Of a DNA stretch of 64,000 nucleotides, positions 6,100 to 36,832 are shown piece by piece; position 1 is the stretch's first letter; every line of letters starts with the position of its first letter. Source of the DNA: an uncultured Alphaproteobacteria bacterium (GTDB taxonomy: Bacteria > Pseudomonadota > Alphaproteobacteria > RF32 > CAG-239); contig CAKQDU010000004.1 of NCBI GenBank assembly GCA_934229625.1, forward strand, positions 27,295 through 91,294, written 5' to 3'. The position numbers and the translations under genes were made by a program. The notes under the pieces were generated by a model, which searched no databases, had not been told where the DNA came from, and saw only the letters and a program-made list of their open reading frames with translations.

Positions 6100-6765
6100 T
6101 TAAAAATACAAAACCAAAGAACAATCTCCGCTATTATCAACGGTACAAGATTTACATAATTGGTTAATCTGATTTAATGTCACATTTGCCAAACATTTCC
6201 GTGAACCTGAACAATGCTTTGTACCAAAAAGAAAATCGTTAGCCGAAGATGTTTTTCCACGCCATAAATAAGCTGCATAAACAACTTCATGCAAAGGTTT
6301 TGCTAAAGTTGTCATCATTTCACGGCAAAACATTTGATGTTCAGGATTTTCAAAATATCCTTTACTGTCTTGTCCAAAATATATTTCAAAGGCAAAAGCA
6401 TCTATCACTTCACCACGGAGAGATTTTCTGTTATATAATTGAACATTATTATTAAAATCATCAATTAAAAAATGACTGCTTTGCTTTTTCCAGCTGTTAG
6501 GCACAAGATTAAGAGAATAAGCTAAATCAACAAACCCAGTATCATTTTGTTGTTTTTTCAATTCATTCATATGGTCTAATAATCCAAAAATCATAGAACT
6601 ATAATCATTGACTGCCTTATTAACCTTAAATTTCGTCATCGCCTTTGAATATCCGGCGATGCCGCCGACAGATAATACGCCGACAATCGCCAAAACTCCG
6701 AGCATTTCTATCATTGACCGACCGGCAGAGCAAACGTCATTTTTCAACTTGCTAAATATATTCAT
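6100..6765 (-). CDS. prepilin-like Cys-rich secreted protein, paralog A
   Basis: 221 aa, MNIFSKLKNDVCSAG|RSMIEMLGVLAIVGVLSVGGIAGYSKAM. Has Gly, Glu at +5, then a ~20-residue hydrophobic helix (class III signal logic). The C-terminal Cys cluster CSGSRKC...CKSC...C..LVLYF is shared with three paralogs in this window. Confidence 0.7.
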   Translation of the reverse strand: MNIFSKLKNDVCSAGRSMIEMLGVLAIVGVLSVGGIAGYSKAMTKFKVNKAVNDYSSMIFGLLDHMNELKKQQNDTGFVDLAYSLNLVPNSWKKQSSHFLIDDFNNNVQLYNRKSLRGEVIDAFAFEIYFGQDSKGYFENPEHQMFCREMMTTLAKPLHEVVYAAYLWRGKTSSANDFLFGTKHCSGSRKCLANVTLNQINQLCKSCTVDNSGDCSLVLYF

Positions 6766-7000
6766 TGTAACTTCCTTTCTTGTTTGTTAAACAGCAACAA
6801 AAAAGCCATCGGCAAGATGGCTGGAAGTTCGTAACCATTATGTGAGAAATGGTGTAGCATATTAGCTAAAAATAACACATTTTGCTACCTTCCAGCCGTT
6901 TGCCAGAAGGTATAACAAATTAACGTCTAAACCTTAAAGACGCTCACATTTAGAGGTTACGACACCCCAGACAGACTATCGCCTATCCGCTGAATAGTTT
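6766..7000 (-). promoter_or_regulatory. structured 5' leader of paralog A (candidate riboswitch/attenuator) with intrinsic terminator and anti-SD
   Basis: Minus-strand RNA shares sequence blocks with the leader at 23651-23875. It has nested closing helices (6955-6961c:6830-6836c and 6943-6949c:6840-6846c) and three internal hairpins. The terminator is GCCAUC-UUGCC-GAUGGC + U6 (6799-6821c). AACUUCC (6823-6829c) is complementary to the RBS GGAAGUU (6769-6775c). Confidence 0.6.
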
Positions 7001-7090
7001 AACTAAAGATTATCCTAAAGTAAAGACAATTTTATAACTAAAAAATTCGTATAAAAAAAGTCAGAACTTGTTGCCTGACTCCTAAAAGAA

Positions 7091-7166
7091 TGGTGCCGAT
7101 TATGTGATTCGAACACACGACCCACGCATTACGAATGCGTTGCTCTACCACCTGAGCTAAACCGGC
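7091..7166 (-). tRNA. tRNA-Thr (anticodon CGU), CCA encoded
   Basis: Reverse complement is GCCGGTTTAGCTCAGGTGGTAGAGCAACGCATTCGTAATGCGTGGGTCGTGTGTTCGAATCACATAATCGGCACCA. Folds by eye as a cloverleaf with anticodon loop TTCGTAA. A hairpin + T7 terminator follows at ~7055-7085 on the minus strand. Confidence 0.9.
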
Positions 7167-7250: not shown

Positions 7251-7375
7251 TGTGTAAAAAAAACGACCGTTTAAAAGGGACAGTTTCCAGGCTGTTTTCG
7301 GCAATGTAGCAAAGGTTATTAACTATTGCAATAACTTTTTATTTTTACGATATTTTTTGGCTTGCTTATTAACCT
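7251..7375 (+). repeat. R1: ~125-nt copy of the segment found upstream of pilin-like paralog C (R2, 22056-22180)
   Basis: By-eye alignment of TGTGTAAAAAAAACGACCGTTTAAAA(G/T)GGACAGTTT..AGGCTGTTTT...GCAAAGGTT...TTGCAATAACTTTTTAT.TT..CGAT.TTTTTTG shows high identity (I estimate >80%). R1 lacks the second inverted-repeat arm present in R2. Confidence 0.8.
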
Positions 7376-21847: not shown

Positions 21848-21934
21848 GCGCTTGTGGCGGAATCGGTAGACGCTGCAGACTTAAAATCTGTTGGGATTTA
21901 TCCCGTGCCAGTTCAAGTCTGGCCTAGCGCACCA
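21848..21934 (+). tRNA. tRNA-Leu (anticodon UAA), type II, CCA encoded
   Basis: GCGCTTGTGGCGGAATCGGTAGACGCTGCAGACTTAAAATCTGTTGGGATTTATCCCGTGCCAGTTCAAGTCTGGCCTAGCGCACCA. Has a long variable arm and anticodon loop CTTAAAA, with one U-U mismatch in the acceptor stem. Confidence 0.88.
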
Positions 21935-22054: not shown

Positions 22055-22232
22055 GTGTGTAAAAAAAACGACCGTTTAAAATGGACAGTTTTTAGGCTGT
22101 TTTTTATAGTCTAGCAAAGGTTGCCGAAATTTGCAATAACTTTTTATATTTGCGATGTTTTTTGCTGTTTTTACAACATTTTATTGCCGCTTGTTTTGCT
22201 GTGTAAAAATAACGGTCGTTTTTTTTACACAC
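22055..22232. repeat. perfect 22-bp inverted repeat flanking a 134-bp segment directly upstream of pilin-like paralog C
   Basis: IRL is GTGTGTAAAAAAAACGACCGTT (22055-22076). IRR is AACGGTCGTTTTTTTTACACAC (22211-22232), its exact reverse complement. IRR ends 15 nt before the ATG, next to the SD GAGGAGG. The enclosed segment contains -35/-10-like hexamers (TTGCCG-17 nt-TTATAT) facing the gene. Confidence 0.85.
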
Positions 22233-22247
22233 TTGAGGAGGAATAAG

Positions 22248-22961
22248 ATGTTTAAGGGTATAGAATTTTTCAGAGGAAAAAGCTGGGTAGCGGAGCTTGG
22301 ATTGCTTCCCTCAGCTCGCAATGACATTTGCTCTGCCGGTCGGTCAATGATAGAAATGCTGGGCGTACTTGCCATTATCGCTGTTTTGACAGTCGGTGGT
22401 ATCGCCGGTTATTCCAAAGCTATGGAAAAGTTTAAGGTAAATAAAGCAATTTCAGAATATAGTTATTTAATTCAGGGATTGATGGAACATCTGGCAGAAA
22501 TTCAAAAAATGTCAAATATTCAAGAGGGCGATGTTCATCATGGACTGATAAATGTTGTTCAGGCGACTAATTTAGTCCCAGAAACTTGGAAAAATGCAGG
22601 CTCTCAGGCTGATGATAGAATGATTGACCCATATGGTAATGTAATACAAATATTTTCACGATATAAACGTTTGGTTATAGATATGTATCTTGGCGGCTAC
22701 AGCGCTCTGGATGACGGCACACAGGCTTCACTTTCTTTTTCGCCTAAGTTTTGCAGCGCTTTAATGCAGGATGTGGTGCAACCTTTAGCATCTGTTTTAA
22801 ATAAAGCTTGGTTTACCTATGGTAATACTTATTATGGCGATAAACATTGTGGCTCAGGTTCAAAATGTATTAGAGATTTGAAACTAAGCGATATAAATAG
22901 GGTCTGCAATTACTGCACCAAACAGTCTGGACGTTTCTGCGGACTAATATTGGAATTTTAA
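22248..22961 (+). CDS. prepilin-like Cys-rich secreted protein, paralog C
   Basis: Start chosen at the ATG after GAGGAGGAATAAG. MFKGIEFFRGKSWVAELGLLPSARNDICSAG|RSMIEMLGVLAIIAVLTVGGIAGYSKAMEKFKVNKAISEYSYLIQGL. The C-terminus is CGSGSKC...CNYCTKQSGRFCGLILEF. Confidence 0.72.
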   Translation: MFKGIEFFRGKSWVAELGLLPSARNDICSAGRSMIEMLGVLAIIAVLTVGGIAGYSKAMEKFKVNKAISEYSYLIQGLMEHLAEIQKMSNIQEGDVHHGLINVVQATNLVPETWKNAGSQADDRMIDPYGNVIQIFSRYKRLVIDMYLGGYSALDDGTQASLSFSPKFCSALMQDVVQPLASVLNKAWFTYGNTYYGDKHCGSGSKCIRDLKLSDINRVCNYCTKQSGRFCGLILEF

Positions 22962-23020: not shown

Positions 23021-23650
23021 TTAAAATACTAAGATAAGTCCGCAGAGTTTGTTTGCTTCTTTGGTGCAGTAATTGCATACATTGTTAATTTCTCTTAAGC
23101 TTATATTTCTGATGCAGAGTGTACTTTCGCTGCAATAAGCATCGCCCATATATTGATTTCCATTTGTAAAGAAAGCTTTATTTAAAACAGATGCTAAAGG
23201 CTGCACCACATTTTGCATAAGCGATGAACAGAACTTAGGTGAAAATGCAGTTGAAGCAGAGCCTCCGTCAACAGATTGGAAGCCGCCAAGATACATATCT
23301 ATAACTAAAGTTTGGCTGCGGGAGAAAATTCTGATTAAGTTCCCGTAGGGGTCGTTGTAATTGTGATTAGATATTTTTTCCCATGTTTCCGGCACCAAAC
23401 TTTCGGCTTCCACAACGCTGGTTAATCCATATTGAATGTCGCCCTCATTGGGTTTTGAAACATTTTGCAAATCTTTTAAGTGTTCTAACAGTCCTTGAAT
23501 TAAGTAGCTGTATTCGCTCACGGCTTTGTCAACCTTAAACTTTTCCATAGCTTTGGAATAGCCGGCAATACCGCCAACTGTCAAAACAGCGATGATAGCT
23601 AAAACGCCCAGCATCTCAATCATAGACCGACCGCATTGATTATTTTTCAT
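23021..23650 (-). CDS. prepilin-like Cys-rich secreted protein, paralog B
   Basis: 209 aa, MKNNQCG|RSMIEMLGVLAIIAVLTVGGIAGYSKAMEKFKVDKAVSEYSYLIQGL...FSPKFCSSLMQNVVQPLASVLNKAFF...CNYCTKEANKLCGLILVF. Convergent with paralog C. Confidence 0.75.
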   Translation of the reverse strand: MKNNQCGRSMIEMLGVLAIIAVLTVGGIAGYSKAMEKFKVDKAVSEYSYLIQGLLEHLKDLQNVSKPNEGDIQYGLTSVVEAESLVPETWEKISNHNYNDPYGNLIRIFSRSQTLVIDMYLGGFQSVDGGSASTAFSPKFCSSLMQNVVQPLASVLNKAFFTNGNQYMGDAYCSESTLCIRNISLREINNVCNYCTKEANKLCGLILVF

Positions 23651-23875
23651 AAGAACTTCCTTTCTCTTTGAAATTAAACAAAAAAGCCGTCTGAAAAAGA
23701 CGACCGGAAGTTGAGAACTACTGTATATAAGTATAGTGTAGCATATTAGCGTATAGCATATTTTGCTACCTTCCGATCAATAGACCAGAAGGTATTTTAC
23801 GTCTAATAATTGACGTATATACAAGAGGTTCTCACACCTCGAACAGACTATCGTCCATCTGCCTTAATGCTATAA
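23651..23875 (-). promoter_or_regulatory. structured 5' leader of paralog B (second copy of the candidate riboswitch/attenuator)
   Basis: Same block order as 6766-7000. Closing helices are 23828-23833c:23713-23718c and 23816-23823c:23722-23729c. Terminator hairpin at 23686-23704c + U6 (23680-23685c). Anti-SD AACUUCC is at 23706-23712c and SD GGAAGUU at 23654-23660c. Confidence 0.6.
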
Positions 23876-35859: not shown

Positions 35860-35983
35860 TTTATTTAGACTGTAAAATTTATTTATCGCAAGGCAATAGC
35901 AGAGGCAATTTTTTGACCGAATAAAGTTCTTTACTTTCTTTATGGCATAAGCTATAAAATTTACAGGTATAGAGATATGCTTA

Positions 35984-36145
35984 GGGCGTCAGAAACCCTT
36001 TTAATCGTAATCAGTCACTTGCATAAGTGACTTTAAACTGTTTATGCCGATTTCTGTTTTTGGACGGATGTCGGTTAAATAAGGCATGAGCCGAATAGGC
36101 CGAGCCGTTTTACGATTACGATTTACGGTTTCTGAACATCCGCCC
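35984..36145. repeat. segmented ~30-nt inverted repeat enclosing ~101 nt upstream of pilin-like paralog D
   Basis: GGGCG/CGCCC, TCAGAAACC/GGTTTCTGA and AATCGTAATC/GATTACGATT (35984-36012 vs 36114-36145). The enclosed segment contains the perfect hairpin AGTCACTT-GCAT-AAGTGACT (36013-36032). Confidence 0.75.
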
Positions 36146-36196
36146 GCCTATATAGTGGGTTTTGTTTTTATGTGCAATTTTGGGAGGTTTAGAAAT

Positions 36197-36832
36197 ATGA
36201 AAAATCAACGTGGCCGCAGTATGATAGAAATGCTGGGAGTTCTGGCGATTATCGGCGTTCTCTCAGTCGGTGGTATTGCCGGATATTCCAAAGCTATGGA
36301 ACATTTCAAACTTAATAAAGCTATTAGCGAATACAGCTATTTAATTTATGGATTGTTGGAGCATCTTACAGATTTGAAAAATGTTTCTAAAAATGGAACA
36401 GCTGGTAGGCAGTATGGGTTGACAAATATTGTTGAGGCGGCAAATTTAGTGCCGAAAACATGGATAAGAGACAGCAGTGCCGATTTTCATGACCCAAACG
36501 GAAATTATATCCGAGTTTTTTCTGCCAACGGGCGTGTGGTTATAGATATGTATTTAGGTAGTTTTCAAGTTGTTGAAAATAAATCAGCTTCAACAGCATT
36601 TTCTCCAAAATTATGTTCGCGGATTATGCAGGATATTGTGCAACCCTTAGCTTCTGTTTTATATGTTGCATGGTTTACAAATGATAGCGGAAAATATTAT
36701 TATTGGGGCGAATCTTACTGTTTTGCAAATCAAAAATGCATACGAGATTTAACCTTGCAAGAAATTAACAGCGCATGTAAATCATGCACAAAAGAAGCAG
36801 GTAAAGTTTGCGGACTTATTTTAGCGTTTTGA
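36197..36832 (+). CDS. prepilin-like Cys-rich secreted protein, paralog D
   Basis: Start chosen at MKNQRG|RSMIEMLGVLAIIGVLSVGGIAGYSKAMEHFKLNKAISEYSYLIYGL (the track extends to 36086). The C-terminus is CFANQKC...CKSCTKEAGKVCGLILAF. Confidence 0.75.
   Translation: MKNQRGRSMIEMLGVLAIIGVLSVGGIAGYSKAMEHFKLNKAISEYSYLIYGLLEHLTDLKNVSKNGTAGRQYGLTNIVEAANLVPKTWIRDSSADFHDPNGNYIRVFSANGRVVIDMYLGSFQVVENKSASTAFSPKLCSRIMQDIVQPLASVLYVAWFTNDSGKYYYWGESYCFANQKCIRDLTLQEINSACKSCTKEAGKVCGLILAF

Follow-up and report, generated by a model that had tools for sequence, protein, structure and literature searches.

Three pilin-like genes lie in the window, the whole 64-kb stretch of DNA that was analysed, and each is preceded by a copy of a structured leader.

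6100-6765, minus strand: pilin-like gene A, 221 aa, N-terminal GRSMIEMLGVLAI...
23021-23650, minus strand: pilin-like gene B, 209 aa
36197-36832, plus strand: pilin-like gene C, 211 aa

The N-termini follow the prepilin pattern (G at -1, E at +5, then a hydrophobic helix), and GRSMIEMLGVLAI..VGGIAGYSKAM was invariant in 12 diverse homologues. Pfam N_methyl scores were at or just below the cut-off; gene C reached 21.2 bits, exactly the cut-off, and scored 16.9 bits against TIGR02532 (cut-off 16.3). No family matched the globular part of these proteins.

The first-pass annotation had singled out the leaders of genes A (6766-7000) and B (23651-23875) for a shared series of ordered blocks and for two nested helices that differ in sequence, and all of these were found where it had placed them. 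The outer helix is CGUAACC:GGUUACG in A (6955-6961 with 6830-6836) and GAGAAC:GUUCUC in B (23828-23833 with 23713-23718), and the inner helix is AUGUGAG:CUCACAU in A (6943-6949 with 6840-6846) and UGUAUAUA:UAUAUACA in B (23816-23823 with 23722-23729). It had missed a third, diverged copy (C, 35965-36189, plus strand), which lies before the third pilin-like gene, and its account lacked the terminal hairpin and U run that are present on each copy. AACCUC and AACUUCC, which it had listed as conserved blocks, are indeed conserved but are more than that, since both are pairing strands: the partner of AACCUC is an upstream GGGG, and AACUUCC has two alternative partners, the ribosome-binding site and the 3' strand of the ACCUUC...GAAGGU hairpin. 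The features of copy A, all on the minus strand, are listed below; AT denotes the antiterminator helix.

6996-7024 (-): putative promoter, -35-like TTTACT 7019-7024, 17-nt spacer, -10-like TAAACT 6996-7001
6970-6987 (-): P0 hairpin, GGAUAGGC, loop GAUA, GUCUGUCC register
6953-6968 (-): Pa, GGGG 6965-6968 with CCUC 6953-6956; the loop contains spacer UG plus the P1 5' strand, 6956-6962
6955-6962 with 6829-6836 (-): P1, outer helix, 3' strand GGUUACGA
6943-6949 with 6840-6846 (-): P2, inner helix
6924-6942 (-): P3 hairpin, CGUC...GACG
6887-6911 (-): P4 hairpin, ACCUUCUGGC, loop AAAC, GGCUGGAAGGU
6854-6888 (-): P5 hairpin, GUAGCA...UGCUAC
6835-6852 (-): Pb, CCAU 6849-6852 with AUGG 6835-6838; the loop encloses the P2 3' strand
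6823-6829 (-): AACUUCC box, within the 6819-6829 box/AT region
6819-6827 with 6889-6897 (-): AT, CUUCCAGCC with GGCUGGAAG
6799-6822 (-): terminator-like hairpin from the terminator scan, AGCCAUC, loop UUGCC, GAUGGCU, then six U
6769-6775 (-): ribosome-binding site GGAAGUU, exact complement of the AACUUCC box

In copy A, the P4 3' strand (6889-6897) doubles as the 5' strand of AT, and P5 contains a symmetric A/U-rich internal loop with AAUAUG on each strand. The same elements were located in copies B and C.

23654-23861 (-): B, complete leader
23840-23861 (-): B, P0
23837-23840 with 23825-23828 (-): B, Pa
23828-23834 with 23712-23718 (-): B, P1
23816-23823 with 23722-23729 (-): B, P2
23800-23815 (-): B, P3
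23768-23793 (-): B, P4
23738-23769 (-): B, P5
23733-23736 with 23718-23721 (-): B, Pb
23706-23712 (-): B, box
23770-23779 with 23701-23710 (-): B, AT
23680-23705 (-): B, terminator
23654-23660 (-): B, ribosome-binding site
35965-36189 (+): C, subtype 2 leader
35965-35982 (+): C, P0
35983-35986 with 35996-35999 (+): C, Pa, AGGG with CCCU
35989-35996 with 36128-36135 (+): C, P1
36003-36012 with 36114-36123 (+): C, P2
36013-36032 (+): C, P3
36046-36075 (+): C, P4
36071-36103 (+): C, P5
36105-36108 with 36125-36128 (+): C, Pb
36135-36141 (+): C, box AACAUCC
36065-36071 with 36136-36142 (+): C, AT
36142-36169 (+): C, terminator
36182-36189 (+): C, ribosome-binding site

The putative promoter of copy A would place the transcript start a few bases before P0. 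A strict sigma-70 consensus scan found no promoter at copy A, where the proposed hexamers fit 8 of 12 positions; clear TTGACA, 17 nt, TATAAT promoters were present at the equivalent position in subtype 1c.

Leaders A and B are 81% identical by column, while the proteins downstream of them are 40% identical; conservation is higher in the leader than in the protein behind it. The two leaders had folding z-scores of -5.6 and -6.3, and none of 200 dinucleotide shuffles was as stable for either. When a covariance model was built from copies in other genomes only, it scored B at 141.2 bits (E 2e-34) and A at 136.2 bits (E 4e-33). Copy C scored 36.9 bits (E 8e-07) with a model made from subtype 1a only.

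Covariation of the leader helices

The proposal that the helices are kept by compensatory change was borne out in more than 100 homologues, whose substitutions preserve the pairing. A covariance-model alignment of 84 distinct type 1 sequences keeps pairing in 95.5% of cells, compared with 78.7% in shuffles; 28 of its 40 pairs vary on both sides, and the covariation score was 0.503 (0.178 in shuffles, about 0.05 with the partners slid). Across subtypes 93.0% of cells pair (70.6% in shuffles). These percentages are inflated because the alignments were fitted to the structure by a covariance model or helix finder, most of all for P2 in the alignment across subtypes, and the shuffle controls overstate significance because many of the sequences are closely related. 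MAFFT alone mis-registers P2 between subtypes, so the helix finder was used instead; when the hand-built alignment was passed through MAFFT with N for gaps, its columns were unchanged.

All eight P2 pairs vary on both sides with 97.8% of cells paired, and there were 82 distinct P2 strands among the 118 distinct copies, with a median helix of 8 bp for cognate strands and 5 bp for non-cognate ones. P1 has four covarying pairs (9:176, 10:175, 11:173 and 13:170 in alignment A7), each with three or four pair types, and its outermost pair (15:167) is unpaired in 79 of the 84 type 1 sequences. The four-way junction that had been suggested, with P2 closing on P3, P4 and P5, was recovered. RNAalifold and pair counts gave both-sided variation in 6 of 7 pairs of P0 (92.9% of cells paired), and all five pairs of P3 vary on both sides (96%). 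P4 was 99% paired with conserved wobbles. The top two pairs of P5, which share bases with the foot of P4, were 100% paired and also vary on both sides. This is a conserved, structured domain kept by covariation, as is expected of a riboswitch sensor.

Pa was paired in all 33 sequences compared across subtypes, its first pair being G-C in 19 and A-U in 14; within type 1 it was paired in 99.7% of cells, but with variation on one side only. Pb was paired in 100% of cells in both alignments, with 2 of 3 and 3 of 4 pairs varying on both sides. An extension of P1 by CC:GG was rejected: pair 46:215 is unpaired in 14 of the 33 sequences, the same bases are 100% paired in Pa and Pb, and the column at 6836 covaries with its Pb partner rather than with the proposed extension. 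The P5 extension drawn by RNAalifold (CGG:CCG or UGG:CCA) was rejected as well, for it fails in type 1 copies with CGG (three C-A cells), and AT pairs there. The length of the spacer before the P2 3' strand was compared with P2 length as a test of whether Pa and Pb form alongside P1 and P2 as pseudoknots, giving a Spearman rho of 0.12 (p 0.23).

Family size, hosts and downstream genes

A search with nhmmer over the window and 190 fetched loci returned 149 matches, of which 118 are distinct, in contigs of gut and rumen Alphaproteobacteria. The window itself holds three copies, and single metagenome-assembled genomes hold at least seven, as counted from contig names. Two diverged subtypes coexist in one genome. 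Since a covariance-model search of 50 pilin loci without an nhmmer match added only a weak, divergent copy (L033, 16.9 bits) and a truncated one (L052), about two thirds of the pilin paralogs lack this leader. Many paralog loci lie at contig ends. Two of the loci, L105 and L108, are apparent chimeras of two leaders.

A link to pilin-like paralogs, as in the first-pass annotation, holds for most of the family: the downstream gene was pilin-like in 123 of the 149 matches. The association is nevertheless wider and takes in cell-surface genes in general, as the other downstream genes examined encode an outer-membrane barrel protein (OMP_b-brl), lipoproteins, RgpF, a sulfatase-family protein (Sulfatase), and MORN, TPR and DUF1796 proteins. 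The best explanation is a regulon of the cell surface, made up of type IV pilin-like paralogs, the outer-membrane barrel protein, lipoproteins, and enzymes acting on envelope polysaccharide or lipid. Every copy examined lies on the strand of its downstream gene, between promoter-like hexamers and the ribosome-binding site. Such a 5'-UTR location before functionally related genes in many genomes is a hallmark of riboswitches, and this anatomy suggests that the leader is co-transcribed with the gene. Paralogs under the leader adjoin paralogs with candidate invertible (inverted-repeat) promoter units.

Known RNA families did not account for the leaders. Rfam 15 at the gathering threshold reported three tRNAs only in the whole window, with no family at leader A or B, in agreement with the earlier impression that they are unlike known riboswitch classes. 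In E-value mode the two leaders gave sub-threshold matches only, those of leader A (isrD, 18 bits with a threshold of 37; RyhB, 17.9 bits with a threshold of 55) resting on its terminator hairpin. At 12 further loci covering all subtypes, RNase P and tRNA were the only families found, with nothing over the leaders, and a literature search found no description of the motif. The RNA is best read as a new family whose regulatory kind is known. The Rfam, homologue and architecture checks all favour the suggestion that it is a candidate new riboswitch or attenuator class.

A leader peptide of the trp or his type was considered and rejected, because small leader ORFs are not conserved across A, B, subtype 1c and subtype 2. 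The ORF reads AUG UGU UAU UUU UAG in A and AUG AGC UGA in subtype 2, is different in B (8 or 13 codons), and has no AUG at its position in subtype 1c; an SD-like GGAAGG followed by AUG is confined to subtype 1a.

Two mutually exclusive folds

In AT, the P4 3' strand pairs with a stretch made up of the AACUUCC box and the terminator's first bases. AT thus uses one strand of P4 and the 5' strand of the terminator, and our analysis demonstrates that P4 plus terminator and AT are mutually exclusive. This is an expression platform overlapping the sensor, as is expected of a riboswitch. AT was paired in 99.7% of cells in the 84 sequences, with the pair types UA/CG/AU, GC/AU/GU and CG/UG/UA at its three variable positions, with three or four types at each. 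Pair 74:99 of P4 is a U-G wobble in 78 of the 84 sequences, and its counterpart in AT is G-C in all 84. A hairpin with a U-run follows the box in 114 of the 118 distinct copies, and the terminator stem covaries (98.3% paired).

The ribosome-binding site is tied to the same box. Of 96 type 1 copies, 60 carry GGAAGUU and 77 carry GGAAG; among 38 long ORFs of the window, GGAAGUU occurs upstream of genes A and B only, and folds of both leaders pair the box with this site. In subtype 2 the box, the P4 3' strand and the ribosome-binding site have changed jointly, to AACAUCC, CGGAUGU and CGGAGUU. AT in this subtype overlaps the terminator stem by just 1-3 bases, and the pairing between box and ribosome-binding site needs a bulge or mismatch.

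When AT was forced in constrained folds, Pa, Pb and P5 arose spontaneously. For RNA cut at the terminator loop, the predicted advantage in stability of the OFF fold over the AT-forced one was about 4-10 kcal/mol in type 1 and 20-25 kcal/mol in type 2; for RNAs extending to the first U-run it was about 7-26 kcal/mol. With OFF predicted to be so much more stable, the ON state would need a stabiliser or kinetic control.

Judged from sequence, the element probably acts in cis as a 5' leader RNA, about 190-225 nt long, and switches between two states in the manner of a riboswitch or attenuator. In the OFF state, the bipartite P1 and P2 stem would follow P0 and close the three-hairpin junction (P3, P4 and P5), and the intrinsic terminator would form directly 5' of the ribosome-binding site. 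In transcripts that read through, the box (AACUUCC, or AACAUCC in subtype 2) would pair with the ribosome-binding site GGAAGUU, so that transcription and translation would both be shut. In the ON state, the 3' strand of P4 would abandon its wobble-rich partner for a perfect pairing with the box and the first terminator bases; AT would then stack on P5, the terminator would be unable to form and the ribosome-binding site would be free. Pa and Pb may persist as simple hairpins once P1 and P2 open, or may pack as pseudoknots on P1 and P2 in the folded sensor. With a terminator ending and an antiterminator refolding, the leaders therefore most likely gate the expression of pilins and other surface proteins upon a signal.

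Candidate triggers and known systems

We infer that the balance of the switch is set by a ligand at the conserved junction core. The most likely trigger is tentatively taken to be a small molecule or ion, perhaps one linked to remodelling of the surface, for example a nucleotide second messenger. A fuller proposal, possible but more doubtful, is that of a new riboswitch class sensing a cell-surface-repertoire signal, for example a cyclic-nucleotide second messenger, with a double pseudoknot as its core (the Pa and Pb loops pairing as P1 and P2), a single box in charge of termination as well as of ribosome binding, and many copies per genome. As a bolder extension, the near-identical boxes and sites might let terminated leaders act in trans on sister mRNAs, helping to select the expressed pilin paralogs alongside the inverted-repeat promoter units.

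The same RNA switch could instead answer to a macromolecule, with an antiterminator or terminator RNA-binding protein, a CsrA-like GGA-binder or a trans-acting small RNA shifting the balance between P4 plus terminator and AT; this we consider somewhat unlikely. It would suit the predicted excess stability of OFF, which calls for a strong external stabiliser, and the conserved GGA motifs on the switching strands (CUGGAAGG or CGGAUGU in P4, GGAAGUU at the ribosome-binding site), and the presence of two diverged subtypes in one genome would be in keeping with two cognate factors. In subtype 2, ACGGAUGU looks similar to the CsrA SELEX consensus, RUACARGGAUGU. However, the GGA motifs lie in stems in both modelled states rather than in hairpin loops, and the architecture is far more complex than the known sites of protein-dependent attenuators, which usually have one or two hairpins. 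A, B and C also have different neighbours (Rho and PPDK, a Fic-domain protein, and others), with no candidate regulator gene consistently beside the three copies.

It is quite improbable that the element is chiefly an independent small RNA gene, about 190 nt long and with a promoter and terminator of its own, that lies upstream of surface-protein genes by chance and acts in trans, for instance by blocking GGAAGUU sites of the family through its box. Promoter-like hexamers, a strong terminator of its own, many copies per genome and a box complementary to a ribosome-binding site common to many family members would all fit such a gene. Against it, every copy examined is on the strand of the downstream gene, and that gene depends on read-through because in most copies only a few tens of bases separate the end of the terminator from the start codon, too few for a second promoter; moreover, a covarying AT that overlaps the terminator would be purposeless in a constitutive small RNA. 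Very improbable too is a ligand-free attenuator or thermometer, in which P4 plus terminator versus AT, or the pairing of box and ribosome-binding site, responds to temperature or to the speed of transcription. The 7-bp helix between box and ribosome-binding site and the wobble-rich P4 are marginal helices of the RNA-thermometer kind, and gut-bacterial hosts meet a temperature step on entering an animal, but P0, Pa, P1, P2, P3, P5 and Pb are all under selection and none is needed by a simple thermometer, and the Rfam thermometer families gave no match. That the leaders have no RNA function, their similarity reflecting recent duplication or gene conversion of promoter-proximal DNA in a large paralog family with signs of recombination (the chimera-like L105 and L108) and many loci at contig ends, is scarcely credible, being already contradicted by covariation: P1 and P2 have wholly diverged in sequence with their pairing kept (the 82 P2 strands and 28 two-sided pairs above), the flanking single-stranded blocks are constant, and the leader is also found before unrelated genes.

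If the riboswitch-type model holds, the leaders form a regulatory RNA class that has not been described before, numbers over 100 representatives and governs pilins, an outer-membrane barrel protein, lipoproteins and envelope-modifying enzymes in Alphaproteobacteria of the gut and rumen that lack cultured representatives. It would then offer a clearly delimited orphan riboswitch candidate whose expression platform can be read and which could go straight into ligand screening, as well as a handle on surface variation in these bacteria and a natural case of one strand arbitrating between an aptamer helix, a terminator and a ribosome-binding site. We know of no riboswitch class for second messengers in this lineage; were the ligand a second messenger, the leader would represent an additional class for such signals there.

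Several known systems share parts of this design. The T-box (RF00230) is likewise about 200 nt long and multi-domain, works by terminator/antiterminator control and occurs in many copies per genome, but the leader has no Rfam match to it and precedes genes other than those for aminoacyl-tRNA synthetases or amino-acid metabolism. T-box-like sensing of tRNA was rejected, because the UGGN bulge of the antiterminator is not conserved (CGGA in subtype 2). Riboswitch aptamers with a four-way junction, such as yybP-ykoY (Mn2+) and NiCo (czcD), resemble the leader in having a multi-helix junction closed by a long stem in the 5' UTR and then a terminator. Their Rfam models were absent at the leaders at the gathering threshold and in the E-value scan, the conserved nucleotides differ, and their genes encode metal transporters whereas those of the leader encode surface proteins.

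The c-di-GMP riboswitches I (GEMM, RF01051) and II (RF01786) are multi-copy leaders before pilin, surface-protein and membrane genes, often with terminator platforms, and a class II switch precedes pilA1 in Clostridioides difficile. The leader is like them in its multi-copy cis position before surface genes and in its terminator platform. The Rfam scans, at the gathering threshold and in E-value mode, placed neither family on the leaders, with no match in sequence or structure, and the leader differs in fold (a bipartite stem closing three hairpins, with Pa and Pb) and in host (uncultured gut Alphaproteobacteria).

The switching strands correspond to those of trp-type attenuators and transcriptional riboswitch platforms, the P4 strands being 1:2, AT 2:3 and the terminator 3:4, and as in the trp-type attenuator the 2:3 pairing is mutually exclusive with both of its neighbours. 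The leader differs from that attenuator in having no conserved leader peptide and in the distance between strands 2 and 3: some 60-90 nt separate them, a stretch that contains P5, Pb and the P2 and P1 3' strands. It also differs in that its box would sequester the ribosome-binding site as well, giving two levels of control.

Leaders A and B and their relatives

The sequence blocks that the first-pass annotation had described as shared, in order, by the leaders of two pilin-like genes were all present on the minus strand, 5' of ORF A (6100-6765) and ORF B (23021-23650). Both helices proposed to close the domain were in place: the outer helix, here called P1, was CGUAACC:GGUUACG in A and GAGAAC:GUUCUC in B, and the inner helix, P2, was AUGUGAG:CUCACAU in A and UGUAUAUA:UAUAUACA in B. 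Alignment of leader A with leader B showed 81% column identity across ~220 nt; the proteins A and B were only 40% identical. Measured against dinucleotide shuffles, fold stability gave z scores of -5.6 and -6.3 for the two leaders.

Features of leader A and of the pilin-like paralogs in the window
7019-7024 and 6996-7001, minus strand: weak promoter-like hexamers, under the strict scan threshold
6970-6987, minus strand: P0 hairpin
6965-6968 (GGGG) with 6953-6956 (CCUC), minus strand: Pa
6955-6962 with 6829-6836, minus strand: P1
6943-6949 with 6840-6846, minus strand: P2
6924-6942, minus strand: P3
6887-6911, minus strand: P4
6854-6888, minus strand: P5
6849-6852 (CCAU) with 6835-6838 (AUGG), minus strand: Pb
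6823-6829, minus strand: conserved box AACUUCC
6799-6822, minus strand: terminator
6769-6775, minus strand: ribosome-binding site GGAAGUU
6765, minus strand: ATG start codon of gene A
22057-22076 and 22211-22230: inverted repeats before gene D (unit 22057-22230, ~175 bp)
Pilin-like paralogs, four in all: A, B, C (36197-36832) and D (ATG at 22248)

Directly upstream of the leader A promoter region was a tRNA gene (7094-7166, minus strand) with its own terminator-like hairpin (~7060-7085). tRNA genes also adjoined paralog D (21848-21931) and the leaders of two loci from other contigs, L014 and L148.

Comparison of the whole window with Rfam 15 at gathering thresholds yielded three tRNAs only, and no known family was matched at the leaders. 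In E-value mode leaders A and B gave sub-threshold matches only, and those of leader A (isrD, RyhB) depended on the terminator hairpin. Twelve related loci, in which all subtypes were represented, matched only RNase P and tRNA models, and a literature search found no description of such a motif.

A search profile made with A, B and two of their relatives recovered the leader from 36 of the 85 loci fetched from other gut and rumen Alphaproteobacteria contigs, and identified a third copy in the window, before gene C. An exact-pattern scan of metagenome contigs found 105 further loci. Leader matches numbered 149 in total, of which 118 were distinct. The two-leader observation was confirmed, and the finding proved larger than had been reported. 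Fifty pilin loci without an nhmmer match contained no leader except for one weak, divergent case, and about one third of pilin paralogs are therefore estimated to have one.

Three subtypes were recognized: 1a, which includes A and B; 1c, in which P0 differs and GAGGUUU replaces GGGGUGU; and 2, which includes C, in which the sequences of P3, P4 and P5 differ and the box is AACAUCC. Clear TTGACA, 17 nt, TATAAT promoters were found in subtype 1c copies at the place corresponding to the weak hexamers of A. Thirty-three subtype 1a copies, all from other genomes, were used to build a covariance model, which scored B at 141.2 bits, A at 136.2 bits, subtype 1c copies at 80-115 bits and subtype 2 copies at 25-57 bits (C, 36.9 bits), and all of these matches covered its full length. 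One weak match (L093:4917-5063, minus strand, 26.5 bits) lay opposite a genuine leader, on the other strand; it is likely due to internal palindromic helices and should be left out of censuses. Two copies, L105:8225-8410 and L108:793-1002, appeared to be chimeras, with the 5' half (the P1 and P2 5' strands) and the 3' half from different leaders, so that P1 and P2 no longer pair; the L105 copy also lacked a terminator. These may have arisen by paralog recombination or as assembly chimeras.

Covariation in two sets of helices

In a model-based alignment of 84 distinct type 1 sequences, 95.5% of cells paired, compared with 78.7% in column shuffles and 31-41% with slid partners. The covariation score was 0.503 (0.178 shuffled, ~0.05 slid), and both-sided changes occurred in 28 of 40 pairs. 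All eight P2 pairs had four or five pair types each, P1 had four covarying pairs, and P3, P4 and P5, including the inner part of P5, were likewise supported. Without alignment, 82 different P2 strands were counted among the 118 copies, and the best P2 helix had a median of 8 bp with the cognate partner versus 5 bp with a non-cognate one. A hand-registered alignment across subtypes, in which N stood for gaps so that MAFFT left it unaltered, had 93.0% of cells paired versus 70.6% shuffled, and in it P0 and the terminator also covaried; these alignments lean towards structure and the sequences are kin. Within the limits of sequence analysis, the first-pass interpretation as a folded RNA is supported, and plain DNA duplication is less likely.

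The two strands of the P5 internal loop (6861-6883 in copy A) were near-identical in all subtypes (AAUAUGC in type 1, AAUAAGG or AAUAAGC in type 2). The UAUG...CUAA arrangement may resemble an 11-nt tetraloop receptor.

Three additional pairings, AT, Pa and Pb, were conserved and covaried. AT, the antiterminator, pairs the P4 3' strand and part of the P4 loop (GGCUGGAAG in A) with the box and the first terminator bases (CUUCCAGCC). It was 99.7% paired in type 1, with three variable pairs (UA/CG/AU/UG, GC/AU/GU and CG/UG/UA), and its variants included CUGG:CCAG, CCGG:CCGG, CAGG:CCUG and UAGG:CCUA, and CGGAUGU:ACAUCCG in subtype 2. P4 kept conserved wobbles on the shared 3' bases (74:99 U-G in 78 of 84, 75:98 G-U in 38), and the AT counterpart pair at column 99 was G-C in 84 of 84; P4 thus appears to be tuned weaker than AT. 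Pa (GGGG:CCUC, GAGG:CCUC, AGGG:CCCU, GGGG:CCCC) was 100% paired in 33 sequences, with a first pair of G-C in 19 and A-U in 14. Pb (CCAU:AUGG, CUAU:AUAG, CUGC:GCAG, CUAC:GUAG, CCGU:ACGG) was also 100% paired, with both-sided changes in three of its four pairs. A candidate extension of P1 was rejected: it was unpaired in 14 of 33 sequences, and the base at column 215 tracked its Pb partner instead.

Downstream genes and variation at the paralogs

A pilin-like gene lay within 700 nt downstream of 123 of the 149 leaders. The downstream proteins share an invariant prepilin-like N-terminus, G|RSMIEMLGVLAI..VGGIAGYSKAM, and match N_methyl and TIGR02532 weakly. At least 7790 database proteins belong to this very large family, and tens of paralogs occur within a single MAG; members with a named source are from animal-gut genomes of uncultured 'Alphaproteobacteria bacterium'. 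Other downstream genes examined encoded lipoproteins, an OMP_b-brl barrel, an RgpF rhamnan-synthesis protein, a sulfatase-family membrane enzyme, MORN and TPR proteins, a DUF1796 peptidase and small membrane proteins; subtype 1c was mostly found 5' of non-pilin genes. The theme common to the downstream genes is the cell surface.

Many pilin-paralog loci (L006-L085) were at extreme contig ends, a pattern which suggests that metagenome assemblies break at the repeated leader and at the invariant signal-peptide sequence. The same alphaproteobacterial genes were on contigs of several source genomes with the titles Bacteroidaceae, Eubacteriales or [Ruminococcus] gnavus, which are probably mislabelled bins.

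Paralog D (ATG 22248, stop 22961) had no leader RNA. It instead followed a conserved unit with perfect inverted repeats at its ends (GTGTAAAAAAAACGACCGTT ... AACGGTCGTTTTTTTTACAC), and this unit was also found 5' of paralogs in other genomes (L005, L010, L029 and L012). The unit has the predicted anatomy of an invertible promoter (phase-variation switch), and its orientation towards the gene was the same in all copies examined. The repeat also occurred once (7252-7271, minus strand) upstream of leader A and the tRNA gene, together with ~90 nt of unit interior, to ~7345, whose orientation with respect to the genes downstream was reversed; no second repeat was found nearby, and the single copy may be a remnant or a recombination partner site. 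The upstream parts of pilin-like ORFs in L012, L022 and L064 had long N-terminal extensions with (CT)n tracts (GGTCTCTCTCTCTCTCTGC) and repeated modules, and the tracts could allow phase variation through slipped-strand mispairing.

A candidate switch and its relation to known systems

The box was followed by a hairpin and U-run in 114 of 118 distinct copies, and three of the four exceptions had an imperfect stem and then a U-run. The ribosome-binding site GGAAGUU, the exact complement of the box, was present in 60 of 96 type 1 copies (GGAAG in 77 of 96); among 38 long ORFs in the window it preceded only genes A and B. Minimum-energy folds paired it with the box, around the terminator. Three elements had changed together in subtype 2: the box (AACAUCCG), the 3' strand of P4 (CGGAUGU) and the ribosome-binding region (CGGAGUU or GGAGGUU). 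These pairings and joint changes point to one strand that would choose between an aptamer helix, the terminator context and the ribosome-binding site, which implies putative control of both termination and translation initiation.

AT excludes P4 and the terminator and, as a nested structure, also P1 and P2. When constrained folding imposed AT, Pa, Pb and P5 formed unaided and AT stacked on P5. Every covarying helix could thus be assigned to one of two folds: the OFF fold would consist of P0, P1, P2, P3, P4, P5 and the terminator, and the ON fold of P0, Pa, P3, AT, P5 and Pb. The cores of P1 and P2 use none of the bases of Pa and Pb, whose loops contain the P1 5' strand and the P2 3' strand. 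Pa and Pb could therefore also form alongside P1 and P2, as two H-type pseudoknots at the P1/P2 internal loop; the length of the spacer before the P2 3' strand, compared with P2 length to probe this, gave a Spearman rho of 0.12 (p 0.23).

Most likely the leader is a riboswitch- or attenuator-type switch that acts in cis, and it probably works through a terminator/antiterminator mechanism. For RNA truncated at the terminator loop, OFF was predicted to be more stable than the AT-forced fold, by ~4-10 kcal/mol in type 1 and by ~20-25 kcal/mol in type 2, so ON would need a stabiliser or kinetic control. A small ligand is tentatively favoured as the trigger, since the junction is complex and conserved, with possible pseudoknots, copies per genome are many and the surface regulon is coherent. 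The main rival, a protein or RNA factor in that role, is somewhat less likely. A stand-alone small RNA and a thermometer are less likely still as explanations of the leader.

The leader resembles the c-di-GMP riboswitches in gene association, and classical four-strand attenuators and transcriptional riboswitches in logic. It matches no Rfam model and belongs with neither the c-di-GMP riboswitches nor the four-strand attenuators; it differs from the latter in having no leader peptide, and from T-box leaders in having no T-box bulge. Judged by its sequence, it is a new RNA family inside a known regulatory kind.
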